DNA from: a virus
Lineage: Duplodnaviria > Heunggongvirae > Uroviricota > Caudoviricetes
Direction: 5' to 3' (one strand)
IMG/VR virus record: IMGVR_UViG_2541047915_000010
Coordinates: 1-37,037 of that record
Length of the DNA stretch: 37,037 bases
Shown: positions 190-37,037 of the stretch, in pieces
How the letters are laid out: every line of letters starts with the position of its first letter
How positions within the stretch are numbered: position 1 is the first letter of the stretch
The notes under the pieces: model-generated
What the model was told of the DNA's origin: nothing
Databases searched by the model: none
Seen by the model: the letters and a program-made list of their open reading frames with translations, nothing else
Translations under genes and position numbers: made by a program

Positions 190-606
190 TCATTCGCTCC
201 CCTCTTTTTCCTTATTTCGTTGAACGCCAATTGCGACACACGTACTAAGCAAATCTTTACATTTCTCTACATCTTCAGACTTACGCAATTTGATGCTTTT
301 TACAGACTGCGGGCTACTGTCCGTAGCACGATACATCGTTATTTCAATATCATTTCGGTCTAAGAGTCCCATAATGGCTTTTGCAACCTCCACACCCTTC
401 TTCGCGAAATCAAAGAACAGAGCAAGTTTATATGGATTTTCGACGGAAAAAACTTCAATTTTGCTAAAACCAACATCGTGTAGAGAAAAATATTGCTCAA
501 CCTCATCTCGAAGTTCTGGATCGCATACAATGTCTATTCTCCAGTACTGACCTAAATGCAAATCGCTATTAACTGTTTTTTCCACAACATCCTCCTTACC
601 CAGCAA
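190..606 (-). CDS. Hypothetical protein, AT-rich ORF between the prophage end and int (possible cargo gene)
   Basis: 138-aa ORF in the track, co-oriented with int and immediately downstream of it; region is visibly AT-rich; no motif recognised. Confidence 0.4.
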   Translation of the reverse strand: MLGKEDVVEKTVNSDLHLGQYWRIDIVCDPELRDEVEQYFSLHDVGFSKIEVFSVENPYKLALFFDFAKKGVEVAKAIMGLLDRNDIEITMYRATDSSPQSVKSIKLRKSEDVEKCKDLLSTCVAIGVQRNKEKEGSE

Positions 607-1570
607 TAGGATTAAATCTCACCGCATCCTGCAAGTAATCCGGCGCAAGATGGGCATAAATCATCGTTGTCTGAATCTTTGCGTGCCCCAGAATTTTCTG
701 GAGCGTCAGAATATTGCCGCCGTTCATCATGAAATGACTGGCGAAGGTGTGGCGCAGCGCATGAACAGCCTGGCCGTCAGGAACATCAGGTGCGACCGTT
801 TTGATGACATCGCGAACCAATGGATAATCCAGCGTCGGAAACACCAGTTTCCCGCCCCGTTTTTTGATCTTTTCAAACAGGCTTTCAGAAATAGGAACGG
901 TACGGTTTTTGCTGTTCTTCGTTTTTGAAAAAGTGATTCGACAATGAAGAACACGGCGCTGCTCCAGTGCCGCTACCTCGCCCCATCGCGCCCCGGTCGA
1001 CAGAAGGATTTCGACAGCCAGCCGTTCATCGGGATTTTCAGCCAGTGCATCCAGCAACTGAACACATTCAGACTTACTCAGATATCCCATTTCGCGCTCG
1101 TTAACCTTCATTCCTTTAAGGCCTTGAACGGGGTTATCGTTAAGAAAATGGCCGGATGAGATGAGTGCGGTAAACATCGCGCTTAACGCCCCAATCTCTC
1201 GATTAATGGTGCTGGGCTGTATCCCCTGCTCTATCCTGGACACACGTAGCTCGGTGAGCATCGTTGTATTAAGTTTATGCACACACGGGTCATCCATTGC
1301 CTCACTCAAGCGCAGCAATTTAAGGCGCGTGTTATGCCCTGACTTCATTAGCTGGCCGTGGTATTTCCACCACAAGTCAATAAGCACCGACAGCGGACGG
1401 CGATCAATGGAGTTTCCTTTCCACTCATTGTTATGCTGTTGCGCCAGCACCCACCGCTCATATAAAACTGCATCCGATTTCGTTTTAAATTTTTTGCGAA
1501 TGCGTTTGCCTTTACGCCCCTCAGGGCGCATGTCAAGAAGATACCCTCCCGGAATTGATTTTATGCTCAT
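596..1570 (-). CDS. int: Tyrosine integrase (P2/186-type)
   Basis: ORF 596-1720 trimmed to the internal Met at 1570 (MSIKSIPGGYLLDMRPEGRKGKRIRKKF, a typical phage integrase N-terminus); C-terminal catalytic region with HALRHTFASH and an LGH...TMIYAHL tyrosine motif; located next to the C repressor as in P2. Confidence 0.85.
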   Translation of the reverse strand: MSIKSIPGGYLLDMRPEGRKGKRIRKKFKTKSDAVLYERWVLAQQHNNEWKGNSIDRRPLSVLIDLWWKYHGQLMKSGHNTRLKLLRLSEAMDDPCVHKLNTTMLTELRVSRIEQGIQPSTINREIGALSAMFTALISSGHFLNDNPVQGLKGMKVNEREMGYLSKSECVQLLDALAENPDERLAVEILLSTGARWGEVAALEQRRVLHCRITFSKTKNSKNRTVPISESLFEKIKKRGGKLVFPTLDYPLVRDVIKTVAPDVPDGQAVHALRHTFASHFMMNGGNILTLQKILGHAKIQTTMIYAHLAPDYLQDAVRFNPIAG

Positions 1571-1619: not shown

Positions 1620-1928
1620 TTAACCGGGCTGTGTACCAGTCTTGCGGGATTTTTGAGAAGACGATGTGTTTTCTGGCCCATCAGGGGAGAGAGAGGGACT
1701 GATCTGCCCAGCAGCCTCATTTGTTTTTCCCGTCATAAGCCAATTCATGTACTTAAAAAAGCGAGGGTGATTAACAATCTTGATAAGCACTTCGCCCCCT
1801 ATGTTTTCAATCCGCCCCGTTTCATAACGACGCAAAGTGCCGATAGGCACATCAATCAGGCCGCAAAATTCTTCGCGCGTTAAATCCTCTGATTCACGAA
1901 TCACTCTAATTTTTTCACCGATAAGCAT
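1620..1928 (-). CDS. C: Immunity repressor C (HTH, XRE-like)
   Basis: 102 aa, MLIGEKIRVIRESEDLTREEFCGLIDVPIGTLRRYETGR helix-turn-helix; P2 C-like size and position, divergent from the early operon and upstream of int. Confidence 0.8.
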   Translation of the reverse strand: MLIGEKIRVIRESEDLTREEFCGLIDVPIGTLRRYETGRIENIGGEVLIKIVNHPRFFKYMNWLMTGKTNEAAGQISPSLSPDGPENTSSSQKSRKTGTQPG

Positions 1929-7232: not shown

Positions 7233-7262
7233 GATTAATTAATCAACATAAGGAAAAGCGAC

Positions 7263-8222
7263 ATGAAAATTTGTATCGACGACGGCTCCACCAACATCAA
7301 GCTGGCATGGACTGAGAACGGCGAACGCCGCAACGCCATCAGCCCGAACAGCTTCAAGTCGGAATGGTCTGCGCCGTTCGGTGGCACGCAGCCCGCGAAC
7401 TACATGCTTGATGGCGTGCGCTATGGTTTTGATCCGGTCAGCGATCGCTTTGTCCAGACGACCGACACGCAATACCAGTACAGCGATGTGAATGTCATTG
7501 CCATTCATCACGCGCTGGTCAAATCAGGCATCACACCACAGGAGGTGGATGTGGTTGTCACCCTGCCACTGAGCGAGTATTTCGACACAAACGCACAGCC
7601 GGACATGGCCAACATCAACCGCAAAAAAGCGAACGTTATGCGCCCGGTGGAGTACCAGAACGGCGAGGCATTCACTATCCGTAACGTGCGGGTTATGCCT
7701 GAGTCCATTCCGGCTGGCTTTAAGGCACTGGCTGACATGAGTCCGTTTGAATCCCTGCTGATTGTGGATTTGGGCGGAACCACGCTGGATGTGGCAAAGG
7801 TTCAGGGGCAACTGGCAGGTATCAGCCAGGTGTTTTGCGATCCACACGTAGGCGTTTCTCTGATGGCCGATGCCGTACTGTCAGTGATGGCCACTAACGG
7901 TATGCGCACCAGTCACCACATCGCCAATACCATTATCGAACATCGCCATGATGAAGCCTGGCTGCGCCAGCACATCCACAATGACGCGCATTACGCCAGC
8001 CTGATGGCGGTTATTCGTGAAAAGGAAGAAACACTGAAACAACGCGTGATCCGCGCGCTGGCGGTTTTTTCGGGTTACGGGCGGGTGATGGTTGTCGGTG
8101 GAGGGGCGGAGATTGTGGCACCCGCTATCCGCGAAGCCTGCGGAGTTAATGCGACTTTCATCGCGGACGGGGTGCCACAGTTTGCTCTGGTTAATGGGCT
8201 GTACGCAATGGACAAGGAGTAA
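7263..8222 (+). CDS. parM: Actin-like segregation ATPase ParM/StbA (type II partition)
   Basis: 319 aa; N-terminal phosphate-1 motif MKICIDDGSTNIKLAW and DLGGTTLD, VGGGAE motifs; strong collinear similarity to plasmid R1 ParM as I recall it; RBS AAGGAAA upstream. Confidence 0.85.
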   Translation: MKICIDDGSTNIKLAWTENGERRNAISPNSFKSEWSAPFGGTQPANYMLDGVRYGFDPVSDRFVQTTDTQYQYSDVNVIAIHHALVKSGITPQEVDVVVTLPLSEYFDTNAQPDMANINRKKANVMRPVEYQNGEAFTIRNVRVMPESIPAGFKALADMSPFESLLIVDLGGTTLDVAKVQGQLAGISQVFCDPHVGVSLMADAVLSVMATNGMRTSHHIANTIIEHRHDEAWLRQHIHNDAHYASLMAVIREKEETLKQRVIRALAVFSGYGRVMVVGGGAEIVAPAIREACGVNATFIADGVPQFALVNGLYAMDKE

Positions 8223-8226
8223 ACCA

Positions 8227-8538
8227 ATGACGACACCAACCAGACGGATAAGTTTCTATCTGAAGCCTGCGGCCGTCAAGAACGAAAGCGAAGCATGCGC
8301 CTGGCTGGACAGCCTTACACCAGAAGCCCGCAAAAGCGGCCAACGCGTGGCTTTTCTGGCCGGGCTGGCACTTCTGAAAATGAATCCAGCAGAGGCTTAC
8401 CGACTGGCTGCATGGGCTGACGATGAGGCGTTATCAGTGACACAAACCAGGACAGAATGCCCCGCGTCACAGCCAGTATCAACCGCACAGATAACCAGTC
8501 AGATGGCCGGAAATATCCGGGCGTTATTTCCCGAATAA
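8227..8538 (+). CDS. parR: ParR/StbB-like centromere-binding adaptor
   Basis: ORF 8092-8538 trimmed to the ATG at 8227 (AAGGAG RBS 8 nt upstream); 103 aa; RRISFYLKPAAVKNESEACAWLDSLTPEARKSGQRVAFLAGLAL parallels the R1 ParR N-terminal RHH region; directly downstream of parM. Confidence 0.75.
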   Translation: MTTPTRRISFYLKPAAVKNESEACAWLDSLTPEARKSGQRVAFLAGLALLKMNPAEAYRLAAWADDEALSVTQTRTECPASQPVSTAQITSQMAGNIRALFPE

Positions 8539-8544
8539 CACAAC

Positions 8545-8566
8545 ATCAGGGCGCATCCGCCCTGAT
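8545..8566 (+). terminator. Hairpin after parR (possible terminator)
   Basis: Perfect 9-bp stem atcagggcg / cgccctgat with a 4-nt loop; the downstream T-tract is weak. Confidence 0.35.
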
Positions 8567-8636
8567 GACTTTAATCCGGGAACATAAACAAGGGGGACAC
8601 AATGCAACACATTGACAGAGAAAAAGGAAAAAAAGC

Positions 8637-9044
8637 ATGAACAGAAAACAGAAACAAGAGTTGAAATACTTCTTACGTAAAGAAATTGCCAGGCTTGAAG
8701 ATGCAGAGTCACAATCATCAGAAATTCCGTTCGGAATGGATATCAACGACGCCCGTATGCTTCAGGCATACCGTATAGCTCAGGCTGCACTACAGACAAA
8801 ACCGTTAAATAACATACATGAAAAGTATGATTATTTTACGGATACCGCTTGCTTGCTGACATCTGAAGAACAAAAGATAGCCCAACTTTTAGGCGACGCA
8901 TGGAACCTGTATTTAACATTGCCAGTTGAGCATCCAATGGGTAGAGATGAATTTTGCCGGGCAATTCATCATTGCCAAAATATGGTGTTGGCACGCCCGG
9001 CCATCAGGGCGTTGGCCAGGAAGGGGCAAGGCTATAAAAGATAA
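8637..9044 (+). CDS. Hypothetical protein (cargo of the A-to-cos variable region)
   Basis: 135-aa ORF with an AAAGGA RBS, followed by a strong terminator; no motif recognised. Confidence 0.5.
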   Translation: MNRKQKQELKYFLRKEIARLEDAESQSSEIPFGMDINDARMLQAYRIAQAALQTKPLNNIHEKYDYFTDTACLLTSEEQKIAQLLGDAWNLYLTLPVEHPMGRDEFCRAIHHCQNMVLARPAIRALARKGQGYKR

Positions 9045-9046
9045 GT

Positions 9047-9078
9047 AAAACGCCCTCCTCCAGGGCGTTTATTTCAAT
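9047..9078 (+). terminator. Rho-independent terminator
   Basis: Stem aaacgccct / agggcgttt with loop cctcc, followed by atttc T-rich tail. Confidence 0.6.
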
Positions 9079-23480: not shown

Positions 23481-23875
23481 TATGCGGTTCTCACAATATA
23501 ATTGAAGGCAATATTGCGTGGGCGGGTTTCATTCCCCTCTGAGGATTCAGTTCTGTATTGACTGGTAAATCTACCGTTAATTGCACCTTGCCGGACGGCG
23601 TTATCTGTCGACAACAGACTATCCCCTCCTTTGTCATTTGGCACCAGCACCGTGTTATCCCACGCATCCCATGACCGAATATTATGATAATGACTTCCTG
23701 TTAACCACCCCTGCATGCTTAAGATGCCCCTTCCGGCATCCACCCCGCGCCCATCATCCCAGCCACGGATAAATTCACCGCGTAAATCCGGTAATTTATT
23801 GGTGGGATAAGCCCTTGCCAGTCTGGGATACATTTCAGAAGAAAATGCTGCACCGTTACATTTCAGCCAGCCCGT
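23480..23875 (-). CDS. Alternative tail-fibre C-terminal cassette SvC (inner, left copy)
   Basis: Minus-strand ORF 23480-23965; from TGWLKCNGAAFSSEMYP onward it is fibre-like, while the part above 23875 is read-through of the complementary arm. Confidence 0.5.
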   Translation of the reverse strand, partial: TGWLKCNGAAFSSEMYPRLARAYPTNKLPDLRGEFIRGWDDGRGVDAGRGILSMQGWLTGSHYHNIRSWDAWDNTVLVPNDKGGDSLLSTDNAVRQGAINGRFTSQYRTESSEGNETRPRNIAFNYIVRTA

Positions 23876-23879
23876 TGGT

Positions 23880-24308
23880 GTGCCCGTTCCATGGCCCTCA
23901 GCCACGCCGCCAACGGGGTGGCTGAAATGTAACGGTGCAGCATTTTCTTCTGAAATGTACCCCAATCTGGCAAAGGCCTACCCCACCAATAAATTACCGG
24001 ATTTACGCGGTGAATTTATCCGTGGCTGGGATGATGGGCGCGGGGTGGATGCCGGAAGGGGCATCTTAAGCATGCAGGGGTGGTTAACAGGAAGTCATTA
24101 TCATAATATTCGGTCATGGGATGCGTGGGATAACACGGTGCTGGTGCCAAATGACAAAGGAGGGGATAGTCTGTTGTCGACAGATAACGCCGTCCGGCAA
24201 GGTGCAATTAACGGTAGATTTACCAGTCAATACAGAACTGAATCCTCAGAGGGGAATGAAACCCGCCCACGCAATATTGCCTTCAATTATATTGTGAGAA
24301 CCGCATAA
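23880..24308 (+). CDS. Alternative tail-fibre C-terminal cassette SvC' (inner, right copy)
   Basis: 142-aa ORF identical to SvC over most of its length; followed by tfa copy 2. Confidence 0.5.
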   Translation: MPVPWPSATPPTGWLKCNGAAFSSEMYPNLAKAYPTNKLPDLRGEFIRGWDDGRGVDAGRGILSMQGWLTGSHYHNIRSWDAWDNTVLVPNDKGGDSLLSTDNAVRQGAINGRFTSQYRTESSEGNETRPRNIAFNYIVRTA

Positions 24309-24919
24309 TGAATAACGCGATATTAAATGATGACCTTATTGCCGTACAGGCAGGAAACATCGTCGTTTATAACTATGATGGTGAGACACGGGAATATATT
24401 TCCGAATCAACTGAATATCTTGCTGTGGGTGTCGGTATTCCGGCAAATTCCTGTTTAGATGCCCCGGGCGCACATAAAGCGGGCTATGCTATCCGCCGTT
24501 CGGAGAATTTAAGTTCATGGGAGTATGCGCCAGACCATCGTGGTGAAACCGTCTATAGCACTGACACGGGAAACACCGAAGAAATCACGGCGCTGGGTGA
24601 CTACCCGAAAAATACAACCACTATCGCCCCGTTAACACCATACGATAAATGGGATGGTGAAAAATGGGTGACAGATACTGAGGCACAACATCGTGCCGCA
24701 GTAGAAGCGGCAGAAACCAAGCGTCAGTCACTGGCTGATGCGGCAATGGCTTCCATAAGTCTGATTCAGTTGAAGTTGCAGGCCGGGCGGAAGTTGACGC
24801 AGGCAGAAACCACCCGGCTTAATGCCGTGCTGGATTATATAGACGCGCTGAACGCAATGGATATAAACATGGCACCAGATATCAACTTGCCGGAAATACC
24901 ACTGGCAGCAGCCAGTTGA
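24308..24919 (+). CDS. Tail fibre assembly chaperone (Tfa), copy 2
   Basis: 203-aa protein 100 percent identical to the minus-strand copy at 22869-23480 (track translations are identical). Confidence 0.75.
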   Translation: MNNAILNDDLIAVQAGNIVVYNYDGETREYISESTEYLAVGVGIPANSCLDAPGAHKAGYAIRRSENLSSWEYAPDHRGETVYSTDTGNTEEITALGDYPKNTTTIAPLTPYDKWDGEKWVTDTEAQHRAAVEAAETKRQSLADAAMASISLIQLKLQAGRKLTQAETTRLNAVLDYIDALNAMDINMAPDINLPEIPLAAAS

Positions 24920-24925
24920 ATATAA

Positions 24926-25405
24926 CTAAGCCGCCCTTACGATATAGTTAAATGCAATATTGCGGGGGCGGGTTTCACTACCACCTGTGTTACCAATACT
25001 TCCTCGTGAATGAAGCGTTGGTGATGGAATCAAACTCCCTCCTGTATTTGTGGCATCAAGCCCGCTGCCTTGCGTATATGTTTTTTTGAAAATCGTGGCC
25101 AACTCCCATTCATCCTTTGTGTCATATCCATCGTTAGCTACAACAATATGGCGGTGTTTTTCCAACATCCCGTTTTGAATGCTCAATAAAGCGCGTGCCG
25201 CATCAATTCCTCGCCCATCATCCCAGCCACGGATAAATTCACCGCGTAAATCCGGTAATTTATTGGTGGGGTAGGCCTTTGCCAGTCTGGGATACATTTC
25301 AGAAGAAAATGCTGCACCGTTACATTTCAGCCACCCCGTTGGCGGCGTGGCTGAGGGCCATGGAACGGGCACACCAACGGGCAGCGCAGAGCCTTCCCCC
25401 AAACC
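24926..25405 (-). CDS. Promoterless alternative tail-fibre C-terminal cassette SvB' (inverted copy of SvB)
   Basis: Minus-strand ORF 24926-25459; identical in protein sequence to SvB from GLGEGSALPVG to the C-terminus; abuts inverted crossover site 5 in frame. Confidence 0.6.
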   Translation of the reverse strand, partial: GLGEGSALPVGVPVPWPSATPPTGWLKCNGAAFSSEMYPRLAKAYPTNKLPDLRGEFIRGWDDGRGIDAARALLSIQNGMLEKHRHIVVANDGYDTKDEWELATIFKKTYTQGSGLDATNTGGSLIPSPTLHSRGSIGNTGGSETRPRNIAFNYIVRAA

Positions 25406-25419
25406 AACGTTTTCGTCTT
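25394..25419 (-). other. DNA-invertase crossover site 5 (inverted relative to sites 1 and 2)
   Basis: Plus strand ttcccccaaacc AA cgttttcgtctt, i.e. reverse complement aagacgaaaacg TT ggtttgggggaa. Confidence 0.6.
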
Positions 25420-31675: not shown

Positions 31676-31832
31676 AGCTTCAGCCCCTTGTATCCGTTAA
31701 ATGATTCGGCAACAATCATCACCCACCACGCGCGTAATCTCACCCCTGCGCCATTCTCCCGCCACGGCGACAACAAAAAGCAGTAACCCCCTCCGCACGC
31801 ACATGCGACCATGCCATACAGGGAGGGAACAG
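31676..31832. promoter_or_regulatory. Divergent intergenic region between FI (minus) and D (plus); expected late promoters
   Basis: Positional only; 157 bp between divergent start codons. Confidence 0.3.
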
Positions 31833-32942
31833 ATGACCGACACCACCATGCAATTGCTCAGTCAGGGCACAGACCCCGTGAAAATGCCGGATTTTGATAT
31901 TCTCGCGGAGGGTAAAACGCTGTCAGGCATGGCAGAGCGCCTGATGAGCCTGTCACTGACCGACAACCGGGGATTTGAGGCGGACCAGCTCACCATCACG
32001 CTGGATGATGCGGATGGTCAGTTGCAGCTACCGCCACGGGGCGCGCGCCTGACGGTTCTCATTGGCTGGAAAGGAGAACCGCTGACAGAAAAAGGCACTT
32101 ACATTGTTGATGAAATTGCTCATGAAGGACCGCCCGACAGACTGACCATTTCAGCCAGAAGCGCAGATTTTCGGGATGAATTTAACGTCAAGCGCGAAGT
32201 ATCTTGGCATGATGTGACCGTTGAACGCGTGGTGTCTGCAATTGCTCACCGATACGGCCTGAAACCGCAAATCAGCGAAATGCTGATGGATATTGAAATC
32301 GACCACGCTGACCAGACCGAAGAAAGCGACATGTCCTTCCTTACGCGCATGGCGGAAATGCTGGGCGCAATCACCACGGTAAAAAGCGGCAATCTGTTAT
32401 TCATCATGCCAGGTGGTGGCGTGAACGCACAGGGGCAGCCGTTGCCCTCGTTCGCCATTACACGCAGCAGCGGCGATCGCCATCAGTTCCGCATTGCTGA
32501 CCGCGAGGCGTATACGGGGGTACGCGCCTACTGGCTTGATCTTAATTACGGGAAAAAGAAAAAAGTCAGCGTGAAACGCCGCAAACCGCCAAAACCCAAA
32601 AAGGAGAAAAGCAGCAGTCGGGAAGGCGACTATATGGAAGGTGCGGAAGGCAACGTGTTTGTGTTACGCAAGACTTATCAGAACGAGCAGGCAGCAAGAC
32701 GCGCAGCGGCGGCAAAGTGGCAGCAGCTACAACGCGGAGCCGCATCATTCTCCATCACGCTGGCGCGTGGTCGTGCAGAACTCTATCCCGAAATGCATGG
32801 CACAGTGACAGGCTTTAAAAGCGAGATTGATTATCAGGACTGGATTATTGCAAAAGCCGAGCACACCATTGATAACAGCGGCTTTACCACGCAGCTTGAA
32901 CTTGAAGCAAAAATCCCGGAATGGATAGCAGAAACAGAATAA
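31833..32942 (+). CDS. D: Tail protein D (late gene D, gpD family)
   Basis: ORF 31701-32942 trimmed to the ATG at 31833 (RBS gggaggg); MPDFDILAEGK...LSLTDNRGFEADQL...ISARSADFR, basic KKKK..KPKKEK stretch and FTTQLELE end, as in P2 gpD. Confidence 0.9.
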   Translation: MTDTTMQLLSQGTDPVKMPDFDILAEGKTLSGMAERLMSLSLTDNRGFEADQLTITLDDADGQLQLPPRGARLTVLIGWKGEPLTEKGTYIVDEIAHEGPPDRLTISARSADFRDEFNVKREVSWHDVTVERVVSAIAHRYGLKPQISEMLMDIEIDHADQTEESDMSFLTRMAEMLGAITTVKSGNLLFIMPGGGVNAQGQPLPSFAITRSSGDRHQFRIADREAYTGVRAYWLDLNYGKKKKVSVKRRKPPKPKKEKSSSREGDYMEGAEGNVFVLRKTYQNEQAARRAAAAKWQQLQRGAASFSITLARGRAELYPEMHGTVTGFKSEIDYQDWIIAKAEHTIDNSGFTTQLELEAKIPEWIAETE

Positions 32943-33069
32943 ATCTCTTAAAAATATTATTTTTGAGATGTGCTTCTACACTGACAGTAAGAACAAAAGA
33001 TAATGTATCAGCCCACTAGATGTCAGAGGTTGGGGCATCAACCAGATGCTAACAATAATACGGATGTTT

Positions 33070-33190: not shown

Positions 33191-36100
33191 ATGATTGGAC
33201 AATTTTTAAGTGCAACAGAGATTTTAGCAAAGAACTATGTTCGTAATAAAATGGTTAAAAATCCATTTTATTCGAATTTAAAATGGAATTTTATTGAAAA
33301 AAACATCATAAGATTAACATCCTCACCGGTTAAATCAGTACTTTGCATATCAGCTTTTTCATTTGTACTACTTTATGTTGGATATTTAAACGAATTATTT
33401 ATAAAAAATAATCTTTTACATTATTTCCCGTTTAGGCATTCATTAACCGAATGGCAAACAACCATTTTAAGTGGCCAATTGACAATTATTGGTATTGTAT
33501 ACCCCCTTGTTATAGGTTTAGTAAGTGTCTTATTCCAAAAAAAGGCAGATAGAAAAATAGCCCAAACTGCTTATCAGCGTTACTCAGGATTCATGCTTGC
33601 TGGACTCAGCGGGCTTTTCTTATCAGGATTTATACTTCTCAGTGTACTAATTAAAACTGTCTTTGGAAGTTATCTTTATGGTATAGCTTGTCTAATCAGC
33701 ATATTATGGCTTTTGATAAACATAGTTCTTTCTATTTGGTTCTTTATCGTGAGTCTTGAAATTCTTGATGATGTAAAACGGCAAATAATTATAAAGCGAT
33801 ACATTGCCTTCGAAATAGTAATGCCCCATATTTGTAACAAAATCTCAGCCAAGCTTAGGTTATACCCTATCTATCAAAAACATAACTATTCAAATTTAGA
33901 AATCAAGCAAGCCGATTACAAAGGAGAATACATATCTGTGGCTAGCGGTTATTCTAAGGAAGATGAGTTAAGTTTATATCACCGTCCTTTTCAACTTACT
34001 CTTAATCTTATTAATTGCCAACTAAAAAAGAAGAATCATTTTGCGTCATTTGTCATTGGTGATAATCGTGCAAAAGAAACAGAATCCACGGGTAAGATAC
34101 TTTTTAGCGTTAAAAATATCAAACCAGACAGCTTATTAATAAAAATACTTAAGCAATGTTTTTATAGGGCTCCGATTAAAGGAGGAGATTTTTCCGTAAG
34201 TCTTACAATGCAGGCTATAACAGCAGATACGTATATGTATCTGCGGGATTCTGATCTCATTAGTTTTGACGATGCTATCTCTGCATTAATTAATAACTTT
34301 AATAATCTCTGCGATTTGTATTTTTTTCAAGATGATAATACCAACAATAACTTCTTACTGATCACTACAGAATTATTTGAACGGAGTTTTCAATATGAGT
34401 TTTCAGATGAAGTTTATAAAATATCAAATAATTCCATGGATAAAATTAATCTTTCTGAAAGATTTTTTGAATTATGTCTTTGGAGCGGAGTGCGTATTAT
34501 CAATAATAGAAAACATCTTATCAGCAATGAACTTTGTATCTATATGGGAATTACTCGTTCACAATGGTCAATATTAACAGAATGGTTCCGAAACAACCAA
34601 TCACTCTTAAATGCCTCGCTTCGTTCACGTTATAATCGTATATTAAGAACCTATACCACTGTTTGGGAGCAATATCAAGAAAGCATAAACTTTCGTTTCT
34701 GCAATACAGAGAATTCAGATTTATTTGAATTATTTTGCAAAACGCAACTACAAGAACTTCCATCGATGATTATTGATGCAACACAGACTCGCGATCCTTC
34801 TACTATTGATACAGCCGTCGATCTTATTAACCGATGGCAGCACTCAATGAATATTGACAGCCATTCGGTAGAAAAATACAGTTACAAAGGCCAGCTTTTT
34901 AACCCGGGTTTTTTCATATCCAAAAAACTAAACTTCAATTCAGACAGAGAGTGGTTCAATATTGCCATCATAAATGCGTTGACTGACATGCGTATATGCA
35001 CATGTCTTTATCTGACATCAAGAATCAATACTTCTGACAAACTAATGACACATTACATTAAACTTATTTTAGAGGGTAAACTTATTGACCAAACCGGTGG
35101 ATATGAAACTCCCACTGAAGAAATTGATAATGCAAGCCAACTAATCAAGATATTAATTAGAATCTGCCTGTGGACATGGTCTGAAAATATGGAGCATAAT
35201 GGGTGGATGAATAGTTTAGCAAGGCGTTTACGTGACTATGATAAAACAGACATGGTGATGGGCAGAGTTTACAGTAATGTTTTTGACTGTGGATTTATTG
35301 ATATGGAACAATCATGGGTTCAGCTATTATTAATTTTTTCTAACAAGAACGATAGCGTATCAAAAGAAATAAAAGAAGCAATAGAAAACAACTATATAAC
35401 ATATCGTGAGAAGCAACGACTCATTGGAGTATTATCAAAAATTTGTAACTCCATCGAATACACTAAAATCAAGCTGACTTTAACATTGGACGATCTCCAA
35501 ACAAAAAAAGAAAACTTAAGAAAGTTGCTTCAAGAGCATATTAACATGCTAAAGAAAGATCTTGATATGAGACTTCAGGATGCTGCCATAGATGTACATC
35601 GACTAGATAGCACTGCACGTAAAACATCAGAACATCTTCGTAAACGCATCAAGAAAACGCTCCCTCTTTCACTTTTCAAATCTATTGATTTTAAGCAGGC
35701 TAGCGATTGTTTCACAAAACATAAGATATCTATTAAGATAGATAAAGAACCGTATGCCGAAGGAATAGAATCCATCCCTTATATCAATGAAGGTGATATT
35801 CAAGCAGACTTAATTCTCAAGGACATCCAGAGAATAATACTTTCAAATTTATTTAGCACTGGCTGTTCGCAACATACCGTAATAGAAGATTTCAATATGT
35901 TGATTGATCACATAAAATCATCTGCTGACTTGGCTGGCAAACTGGTTCTTGTGATGAGTAAAGAGATCTTTCAGCAATATAATCGTATGCTTTTCGATAA
36001 TCCCAACCTCAGAGAACTAATGAGAAAAAATGATGATGGCTCTATGAACATAACTACTGAATCCGGTACCTGTAAGGTTTACTTCTTACCATTTGTTAAT

Positions 36101-36310
36101 CAACCATTTTCTCTTGTGGTAAAGGATAACTACTTCACTAAATTAATTATTAGAGAATATGATAATAATAAGTTAGTAAATGTCACTTCAGAGAATATCA
36201 AAAGTGACTCAGATAAATTCAAGCTAACTCTTAACTATGAGTTGAATATAGTATTTGAAGGAAACGCTGATTTAAAAATAGCTCACTCGCAAAGAGTGAC
36301 ATCAGAATAA
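33191..36310 (+). CDS. Large uncharacterised membrane-anchored protein (N-terminal 4 predicted TM helices plus a soluble domain of about 850 aa); cargo gene between D and ogr
   Basis: Uninterrupted 1039-codon ORF in a strongly AT-rich segment (Lys/Asn/Ile-rich); hydrophobic helices at roughly aa 50-66, 91-116, 132-154 and 162-192; no catalytic motif recognised by eye. Confidence 0.8.
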   Translation: MIGQFLSATEILAKNYVRNKMVKNPFYSNLKWNFIEKNIIRLTSSPVKSVLCISAFSFVLLYVGYLNELFIKNNLLHYFPFRHSLTEWQTTILSGQLTIIGIVYPLVIGLVSVLFQKKADRKIAQTAYQRYSGFMLAGLSGLFLSGFILLSVLIKTVFGSYLYGIACLISILWLLINIVLSIWFFIVSLEILDDVKRQIIIKRYIAFEIVMPHICNKISAKLRLYPIYQKHNYSNLEIKQADYKGEYISVASGYSKEDELSLYHRPFQLTLNLINCQLKKKNHFASFVIGDNRAKETESTGKILFSVKNIKPDSLLIKILKQCFYRAPIKGGDFSVSLTMQAITADTYMYLRDSDLISFDDAISALINNFNNLCDLYFFQDDNTNNNFLLITTELFERSFQYEFSDEVYKISNNSMDKINLSERFFELCLWSGVRIINNRKHLISNELCIYMGITRSQWSILTEWFRNNQSLLNASLRSRYNRILRTYTTVWEQYQESINFRFCNTENSDLFELFCKTQLQELPSMIIDATQTRDPSTIDTAVDLINRWQHSMNIDSHSVEKYSYKGQLFNPGFFISKKLNFNSDREWFNIAIINALTDMRICTCLYLTSRINTSDKLMTHYIKLILEGKLIDQTGGYETPTEEIDNASQLIKILIRICLWTWSENMEHNGWMNSLARRLRDYDKTDMVMGRVYSNVFDCGFIDMEQSWVQLLLIFSNKNDSVSKEIKEAIENNYITYREKQRLIGVLSKICNSIEYTKIKLTLTLDDLQTKKENLRKLLQEHINMLKKDLDMRLQDAAIDVHRLDSTARKTSEHLRKRIKKTLPLSLFKSIDFKQASDCFTKHKISIKIDKEPYAEGIESIPYINEGDIQADLILKDIQRIILSNLFSTGCSQHTVIEDFNMLIDHIKSSADLAGKLVLVMSKEIFQQYNRMLFDNPNLRELMRKNDDGSMNITTESGTCKVYFLPFVNQPFSLVVKDNYFTKLIIREYDNNKLVNVTSENIKSDSDKFKLTLNYELNIVFEGNADLKIAHSQRVTSE

Positions 36311-36445: not shown

Positions 36446-36706
36446 ATGTTCCGTTGTCCGCTTTGTGGCGCATCTGCCCGTATCCGCACCAGTCGTCCGG
36501 AAAATGATTCAAACACCGTGAGACAAAAGTATTATCAGTGTAACAATCTAGAATGCGGCGTATGTTTCTCAACACTGGAAGCCTTCCACAAATTCACTTC
36601 AAAGCACGTCTCCCCCATTCACTCATCAGAGGGCATCCCGTGGCATGAACTGCCAACTTCACACAGAGGAAACAATCAGATGAGTTTGCCCTTACCTCAG
36701 AATTAA
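36446..36706 (+). CDS. ogr: Late gene activator Ogr (zinc-finger, Ogr/Delta family)
   Basis: MFRCPLCGASARIRTSRPENDSNTVRQKYYQCNNLECGVCF has the CxxC...CxxC arrangement and parallels P2 Ogr (MFHCPLCQHAAHARTSRY...YHQCQNVNCSATF); agagagg RBS. Confidence 0.85.
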   Translation: MFRCPLCGASARIRTSRPENDSNTVRQKYYQCNNLECGVCFSTLEAFHKFTSKHVSPIHSSEGIPWHELPTSHRGNNQMSLPLPQN

Positions 36707-36896: not shown

Positions 36897-37037
36897 ATGT
36901 CGCAAAAATCGCTTACGGCCATCACGTTCTGCGTGACGGCAATCCTCATCATCTGGATGCTGCACGGTTCGCTGTGCGAAATACGGATGAGCTTCTGGGG
37001 AGCGGAGTTTGCGGCGTTCTTACAGTGTAAGCAGTAA
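36897..37037 (+). CDS. Hok/Gef-family type I toxin-like small membrane protein
   Basis: 46 aa: MSQKSLTAITFCVTAILIIWMLHGSLCEIRMSFWGAEFAAFLQCKQ; N-terminal TM helix and SLCEIR...AAF, as in Hok (..KSLCEIRYRDGHREVAAF..); AAGGAG RBS 8 nt upstream; the stop codon is the last 3 nt of the window. Confidence 0.55.
   Translation: MSQKSLTAITFCVTAILIIWMLHGSLCEIRMSFWGAEFAAFLQCKQ

Follow-up and report, generated by a model that had tools for sequence, protein, structure and literature searches.

An AT-rich accessory gene in the slot between int and attL of a P2-like Escherichia coli prophage

The DNA analysed here (the window) is a viral stretch of 37,037 nucleotides, IMG/VR record IMGVR_UViG_2541047915_000010. 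Judging from sequence comparison, the element is a P2-like prophage inserted between ihfA and btuC in E. coli. E. coli O127:H6 E2348/69 matches the window at 100% identity over the first 2.4 kb and at 92.9-98.9% over the remainder, where some cargo differs; the window thus derives from a lysogen related to this strain. At this end of the prophage a small gene, called gene X below, lies between the integrase gene int and attL. The features of the region, in window coordinates, are the following.

59-83, no strand: att core AAAGAAAAAAGGCCGCAGAGCGGCC, 25 bp, the attL copy; on the minus strand its GC hairpin (83-69) and T-run are the ihfA intrinsic terminator
84-189, no strand: phage att arm, from the core to the stop codon of gene X; 33% GC; left conserved flank of the slot
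190-585, minus strand: coding sequence of gene X (GTG at 585-583, TGA at 192-190; 131 aa), cargo protein WP_000416304.1, PHROG 14142
586-598, minus strand: int-X junction, as read from the sequence, with the int stop codon TAA (598-596), the Shine-Dalgarno sequence AAGGAGG (597-591) and a 5-nt spacer (590-586)
596-1570, minus strand: int, tyrosine integrase, 324 aa (Pfam Int_N 1.5e-28, Phage_integrase 7.9e-20); right conserved flank of the slot
1620-1928, minus strand: P2 C-type repressor, 102 aa, with a helix-turn-helix (HTH; Pfam HTH_3/HTH_31, PHROG 147); presumed first gene of a C-int-X transcript
2025-2303, divergent from the C-type repressor: Cox-like gene, from Pfam and PHROG searches

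The boundary between host and prophage is sharply defined. The btuC end lies just left of window position 1, and each of the 5426 complete E. coli genomes aligns with the window from position 1 to 83 and diverges thereafter. In E2348/69 a second copy of the 25-mer of the att core follows the ihfA stop codon immediately, at the opposite end of the prophage. With attL mapped to 59-83, the ORF of gene X, which lies 106 bp inside the prophage, is therefore prophage DNA, and the worry of the first-pass annotation that it might be a host gene outside the prophage falls away. The same annotation had seen a minus-strand terminator (57-84) behind the ORF. The hairpin is real: in a terminator scan its stem occupies 83-69 and is followed by TTTTTTCTTT, with the T-run reaching to about 59. 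However, it belongs to the att core and to the host's ihfA terminator rather than to gene X itself, and this host terminator is duplicated at attL and attR. It is nevertheless correctly placed to stop any int-X transcript.

Between the att core and gene X the att arm carries two direct repeats, TGTGGTCA (173-180) and TGTGGATCA (184-192), which are 11 bp apart, the second overlapping the stop codon of gene X. A similar pair, TGTGGAC/CGTGGAA, is found in the opposite arm (33040-33058 of locus L002). We take these repeats to be candidate Int arm-type sites, by analogy with the P2 consensus; the frequency of the repeat motif alone within the window is statistically not unusual. The ihfA-btuC att site is not mentioned in Nilsson et al. 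2011. BtuC permease has been listed as an auxiliary metabolic gene of P2-like viruses in a 2026 survey (PMC13100340), a call that may be a prophage-boundary artefact, because btuC here is a host gene abutting attL. An Rfam scan of positions 1-2100 gave sub-threshold matches only. One of these, on the minus strand at 1-124, scores 22.5 bits for the enterobacterial sRNA STnc540, whose gathering score is 38, and covers the host ihfA-btuC intergenic remnant together with the att core.

Gene X was first proposed as an ORF at 190-606 on the minus strand, starting with TTG and encoding 138 aa. This ORF is present in the ORF list, but its start at 606 does not hold, as the true start is almost certainly the GTG at 585, judging from four observations. 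First, the minus strand reads GCT GGG TAA GGAGG ATGTT GTG GAA across the junction, so that a consensus Shine-Dalgarno sequence overlaps the int stop codon and stands 5 nt upstream of the GTG. Second, positions 1-128 of the 128-position PHROG 14142 profile align to residues 8-135 of the long ORF. Third, the Salmonella orthologues have an ATG at exactly the codon of this GTG. Finally, RefSeq annotates 190-585 as WP_000416304.1, a 'hypothetical protein'. The 10-nt gap between int and gene X is also seen in the Salmonella loci L004 and L027, and the position int-X-attL-btuC is kept in the orthologues from E. coli GF60 (77% identical at the nucleotide level) and Salmonella (about 61% at the amino-acid level).

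Pairwise comparisons with the E. coli GF60 and Salmonella orthologues gave dN/dS values of 0.17-0.24 at dS of about 1.0-1.4. On this measure gene X is a real gene under purifying selection. That it would be an ORF arisen by chance in the AT-rich DNA of the att arm, or the remnant of a gene in decay, is hardly credible: its product has no known domain and truncated copies of the family occur in other prophages (loci L037-L039; proteins P0004, P0006 and P0007), but against this stand the low dN/dS at dS of about 1, the conservation of a full-length protein with a preserved start from E. coli to Salmonella, the strong Shine-Dalgarno sequence, and the confident fold predicted for the protein. A second copy of the gene was not found within the window. 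The AT-richness remarked on in the first-pass annotation is borne out by a GC content of 39.4% (GC3 35%), compared with 49.4% for int (GC3 54%) and 51.4% for the window; this places gene X at about the 10th percentile of 396-nt windows. The protein had also been called acidic, which it is only mildly (pI 5.15, 24 D+E against 19 K+R).

The protein X, of 131 aa and 15.0 kDa, is soluble and has no signal peptide, transmembrane segment or conserved catalytic motif. In the alignment of the family, residues F33, A61, A68, I71, M72, G73, L74 and E81 are invariant, and H10, I17, C21, P23, L25, F58, R77, D79, I80, I82, T88 and L112 are nearly so. The best-conserved element consists of helix α2 and the following strand β4, with the motif A..IMGLL.R.DIEIE. 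Conserved residues fall mainly in the hydrophobic core, and a recognisable catalytic constellation is absent. An AlphaFold2 model built from a 12-sequence alignment is confident and compact (pLDDT 78.2, pTM 0.72), with the elements β1(14-21) α1(23-35) β2(40-43) β3(52-59) α2(60-75) β4(80-87) β5(95-100) α3(106-113) β6(116-123). The predicted fold is a ferredoxin-like βαββαβ core with a β-α-β extension. Foldseek searches of the model against PDB and BFVD returned no match at E<=1e-3.

The ferredoxin-like βαββαβ core is shared with ACT, PII-like and CutA domains, a generic likeness of fold only. Protein X differs from these domains in having just 6-12% identity, no profile match, an additional C-terminal β-α-β and none of the ligand-binding motifs. 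We rejected membership in the PII-like, ACT or CutA families; there was no Pfam or NCBIfam hit, and a PDB sequence profile search with X gave nothing below E=1.8. There is likewise next to no chance that X is a PD-(D/E)XK nuclease, a name that one GenBank submitter gave ('PDDEXK family nuclease') to a Citrobacter freundii member of the family (P0033). The conserved acidic strand D79-I-E81 would fit such a label, which however stands on one record only, and X fails the conserved D...(D/E)xK motif on an αβββαβ core. Since the invariant residues are those of a hydrophobic core, profile searches gave no hits to known domains and the fold is of a generic ACT/PII/CutA-like kind, there is no enzyme signature, and protein X probably acts by binding rather than by catalysis.

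The family is already catalogued as PHROG 14142, which carries no annotation. Protein X matches this profile over its whole length (E=8.6e-70, 233.6 bits), as do 12 of the 12 aligned family members; PHROG 14142 is X's own family, and membership is uninformative on function. The first-pass annotation did not recognise the protein, and profile searches agree, giving this one match. Pfam, NCBIfam and PADLOC produced no match for X or any member scanned, and in PADLOC-DB v2 no defence family matches X at E<=10; together with the PDB search, these searches also returned no clear homology to a housekeeping protein. The accession WP_000416304.1 is mentioned in no paper.

A word-indexed search of 5.8 billion proteins yielded 11 clusters, all from E. 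coli or Salmonella, and an exhaustive profile search of 1.84 billion representatives at 50% identity yielded about 11 genuine clusters. Four long hits of the profile search (P0020-P0023, E of about 1e-4 to 1e-5), with 3-12 short matching stretches each, were discounted because they probably reflect repeats or low complexity; P0023, the only one of the four whose sequence was read, is a tandem repeat. A scan of genome contigs added a single locus, from Symbiopectobacterium. Distant members (29-39% identity) come from Salmonella and Citrobacter (the P0014 type, in at least 1000 contigs), Symbiopectobacterium and metagenomes. As far as these sequence searches reach, the family is thus tiny and restricted to Enterobacterales prophages. 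No match was found when X, P0013 and P0014 were compared by tblastn with 50,697 INPHARED records, and because it is absent from these isolated phages the family is known only from prophage predictions.

The comparison of related prophages places gene X in a slot with very precise borders. Homology between prophages and the window covers positions 1 to 191/197 and resumes at 602/609, leaving a variable slot from about 192/198 to 601/608. The variable interval is therefore exactly gene X with its Shine-Dalgarno sequence. Prophages that carry other cargo (L003, L042-L045) keep its flanks, int and the attL arm, at an identity of 98% or more. The alternative cassettes in the int-attL slot lie at the following positions.

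Locus L003, 3209-4005: alternative cassette
Locus L042, 2186-2982: alternative cassette
Locus L043, 1944-2982: alternative cassette
Locus L045, 2312-2987: alternative cassette

This alternative cargo is one two-gene module in three diverged versions. One gene encodes a CxxC...CxxC zinc-ribbon-like protein of 120, 166 or 127 aa, and its partner a coiled-coil protein (145, 145 or 99 aa) whose transmembrane anchor is C-terminal; one of the three versions bears the annotation DUF1640. Pfam and PADLOC gave no convincing match for the module, which could be an uncharacterised two-component system, and no homology was found between it and X. An int gene of at least 95% identity is present in about 293 of the 5426 complete E. 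coli genomes, with 299 matching in total. Across the same genomes gene X occupies the slot in 159 and the alternative cassettes in 86, 39 and 19. These counts add up to 303, close to the number of int carriers, and the slot is therefore seemingly never empty.

That gene X is accessory, a moron in the words of the first-pass annotation, which had also proposed looking for its presence and absence among related prophages, is directly borne out by this census: the same int and attL arm carry other cargo in the exact slot. The label fits in that the gene is accessory, replaceable and of foreign GC content; no promoter of its own was found, and the terminator is that of the att core. Lambdoid morons in the definition of Hendrix and Juhala likewise show foreign composition, presence or absence among close relatives and a terminator on the 3' side, whereas gene X has no detected promoter of its own and seems to ride on the C-int transcript. 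Because no such promoter was found, gene X does not look like a textbook moron made up of promoter, gene and terminator. It is very likely that gene X is horizontally acquired accessory cargo, probably expressed in the lysogen.

How gene X would be expressed follows from the arrangement of its neighbours. It had been described as co-oriented with int and directly downstream of it, and this is what we see: int runs from 596 to 1570 on the minus strand and gene X stands on the same strand, immediately 3' of it. No sigma-70-like site was found upstream of gene X in a consensus scan, which a weak or non-consensus promoter could escape. A relaxed scan of the C-cox region, which contains the operator-like 11-mers TATAAGTACAC at 1941 and 1975, did not reveal a promoter for gene X either, and the minus strand between C and X showed nothing resembling a promoter or a terminator. 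The sole minus-strand terminator in the scan is that of the att core. The P2 promoter Pc drives both C and int. By analogy, gene X is probably co-transcribed with C and int as the distal gene of the operon, and expressed in the lysogen. It would be the last gene of a C-int-X message read from the repressor promoter, would be translated from its own strong Shine-Dalgarno sequence, and its transcript would end at the hairpin of the att core. The int-X pair is combined with at least three different C/cox immunity types, so that its movement is independent of the immunity region.

Such tight coupling to int (the 10-nt gap, with the Shine-Dalgarno sequence over the int stop codon), and the position of every family member directly beside att and its TGTGG repeats, could also mean that X is an accessory factor of site-specific recombination, modulating the activity, stability or directionality of Int at att. 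We consider this very improbable. Unrelated genes take the place of X in prophages whose int is 99% identical and whose att arms are the same. A Cox-like excisionase is already there, and in the integrated state of distant relatives att comes to lie between X and int.

These relatives, with 30-47% identity, are not found beside int. They are the outermost gene at the far end of the prophage and converge with ogr: loci L040 and L041 have the layout fabF | att | X → ← ogr ← D, and L028-L031 likewise have X at att and convergent with ogr. In the HP1/P2-like prophage of L036 the relative lies just inside att, downstream of bamD and raiA. On a circular phage genome every position of the family maps between ogr and int, the interval that contains attP; X is always oriented like int, and what differs is the side of attP. 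Where a relative stands on the ogr side, its start codon is preceded, at a distance of only about 20-70 nt, by a hairpin terminator (L036 5960-6000; L040 1330-1400). The neighbours are mixed: the relative in L032 adjoins the PADLOC defence candidate HEC-04 (E=3e-204), that in L034 has a small secreted protein next to it, and in L035 and L036 no annotated gene stands beside it. X thus stands alone, at the border of a variable region. In other E. coli P2-like prophages, truncated copies that retain just the C-terminal half are found between hok and ogr (L037 1096-1386; L038 378-551; L039 911-1078); the family once held the ogr side of att in this E. coli lineage of P2-like prophages too.

The window contains further variable features. 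At the classic cargo position of P2, flanked by gpD (31701-32942) and ogr (36446-36706), lies a plus-strand ORF of 1039 aa (33191-36310) with no Pfam or PADLOC hit; E2348/69 has a 221-aa hypothetical protein at the gpD-ogr position instead. A plus-strand ORF of the Hok/Gef toxin family (36898-37037), annotated as Hok/Gef in E2348/69, closes the window, between ogr and the attR side. The A-to-portal hotspot is nearly empty here (8564-9071, about 0.5 kb), and in E2348/69 it holds a 3.7-kb AAA-ATPase and S8-peptidase pair (L002 5137-8825). Gene A, for the replication endonuclease, is followed downstream by ParM/ParR-like plasmid partition genes at about 7260-8540 (L002 3841-5116). The tail-fibre segment at 23870-25414 is inverted relative to E2348/69, with 98% identity on the opposite strand. 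Repeats of about 215 nt, around 21.9-25.4 kb, flank it, and a recombinase gene adjoins. These three observations make it probably an invertible host-range segment.

The closest precedents for the cargo of the slot are the P2 genes old, tin and fun(Z) (PMC9122126, Rousset et al. 2022; PMC13586616), which like gene X are AT-rich, non-essential and vary among near-identical P2-like phages. We propose the same functional class for X, while those three genes each have a mechanism of their own. Of the defence hotspots of P2-like phages, the slot of gene X is the int-att one, listed as minor (PMC13586616), and not A-Q or D/ogr-att; the cargo that PICI satellites carry between int and att (cited in PMC13586616) belongs to a different type of element and consists of different genes. 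About 3% of the recognised defence systems of P2-like prophages are located between int and att (PMC13586616). When genes of unknown function at the defence loci of eight randomly chosen P4 satellites were tested, the loci of six protected against phages (PMC13586616), a rate of success at the P4 hotspot that need not carry over to P2 or to the int-att slot.

The reading we prefer is that X is cargo, co-transcribed with C and int in the lysogen, and a binding protein in conflicts between phages; taken as a whole, we put this statement at not far short of an even chance. Instead of catalysing a reaction, protein X would bind another protein or a small ligand and thereby protect the lysogen against other phages or satellites, through superinfection exclusion or defence. 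The role in defence or superinfection exclusion, taken separately, is a possible one that we hold tentatively. Several points speak against it: no experiment or homology links X to defence, PADLOC was blank, and X has no sequence or HMM similarity to catalogued defence proteins; int-att is a minor location for defence systems; expression in the lysogen is assumed from the analogy with P2, as the scans found no promoter; a terminator lies directly upstream of the gene in the ogr-side relatives; no INPHARED isolate carries a family member; and a lone small protein in which neither sensor nor effector can be recognised is not typical of known defence systems. A more specific version, in which X would be a new single-protein anti-phage or anti-satellite factor that lacks an enzyme domain and binds a phage protein or a small signalling ligand through its ACT/PII-like fold, the zinc-ribbon and coiled-coil pair a second such system, and the int-att interval a never-empty immunity slot with two states, seems to us unlikely.

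Two other functions were weighed against this defence reading. X might be a counter-defence protein, made together with Int upon infection or establishment and neutralising a host immune component or signalling molecule. This is quite improbable, as X stands downstream of the lysogenic C-int unit and not in the early lytic operon, and anti-defence genes are rare in P2-like prophages (28 P2 elements with any; PMC13586616); the structural likeness is generic as well, with the Foldseek searches in PDB and BFVD as blank as described above. X might instead be a moron for host fitness or virulence that changes the physiology of the lysogen, for example via a host regulator, and has nothing to do with phage conflict. 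A position presumably expressed in the lysogen would suit this role, and many carriers belong to EPEC, STEC and EAEC lineages (O127:H6, O111:H8, O104:H4, O55:H7). This pathotype bias probably reflects the choice of genomes for sequencing, however, and the family also occurs in prophages of Salmonella, Citrobacter and Symbiopectobacterium; X has no secretion signal or effector-like domain, and we give this role a small chance.

The value of gene X lies in its well-defined and convenient slot, not in a surprising mechanism. The slot is convenient for experiments since its borders, the int stop codon and the att arm, are precise to the gene, and its four cargo states offer natural isogenic comparisons. 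Were gene X to have no phenotype, it would be one more prophage ORFan, already filed as PHROG 14142. If it does protect lysogens, a very small effector with no known domain would be added to the prophage-borne immunity genes. The int-att interval, so far known as a third cargo hotspot of P2-like phages from bioinformatic surveys only, would then gain experimental support.
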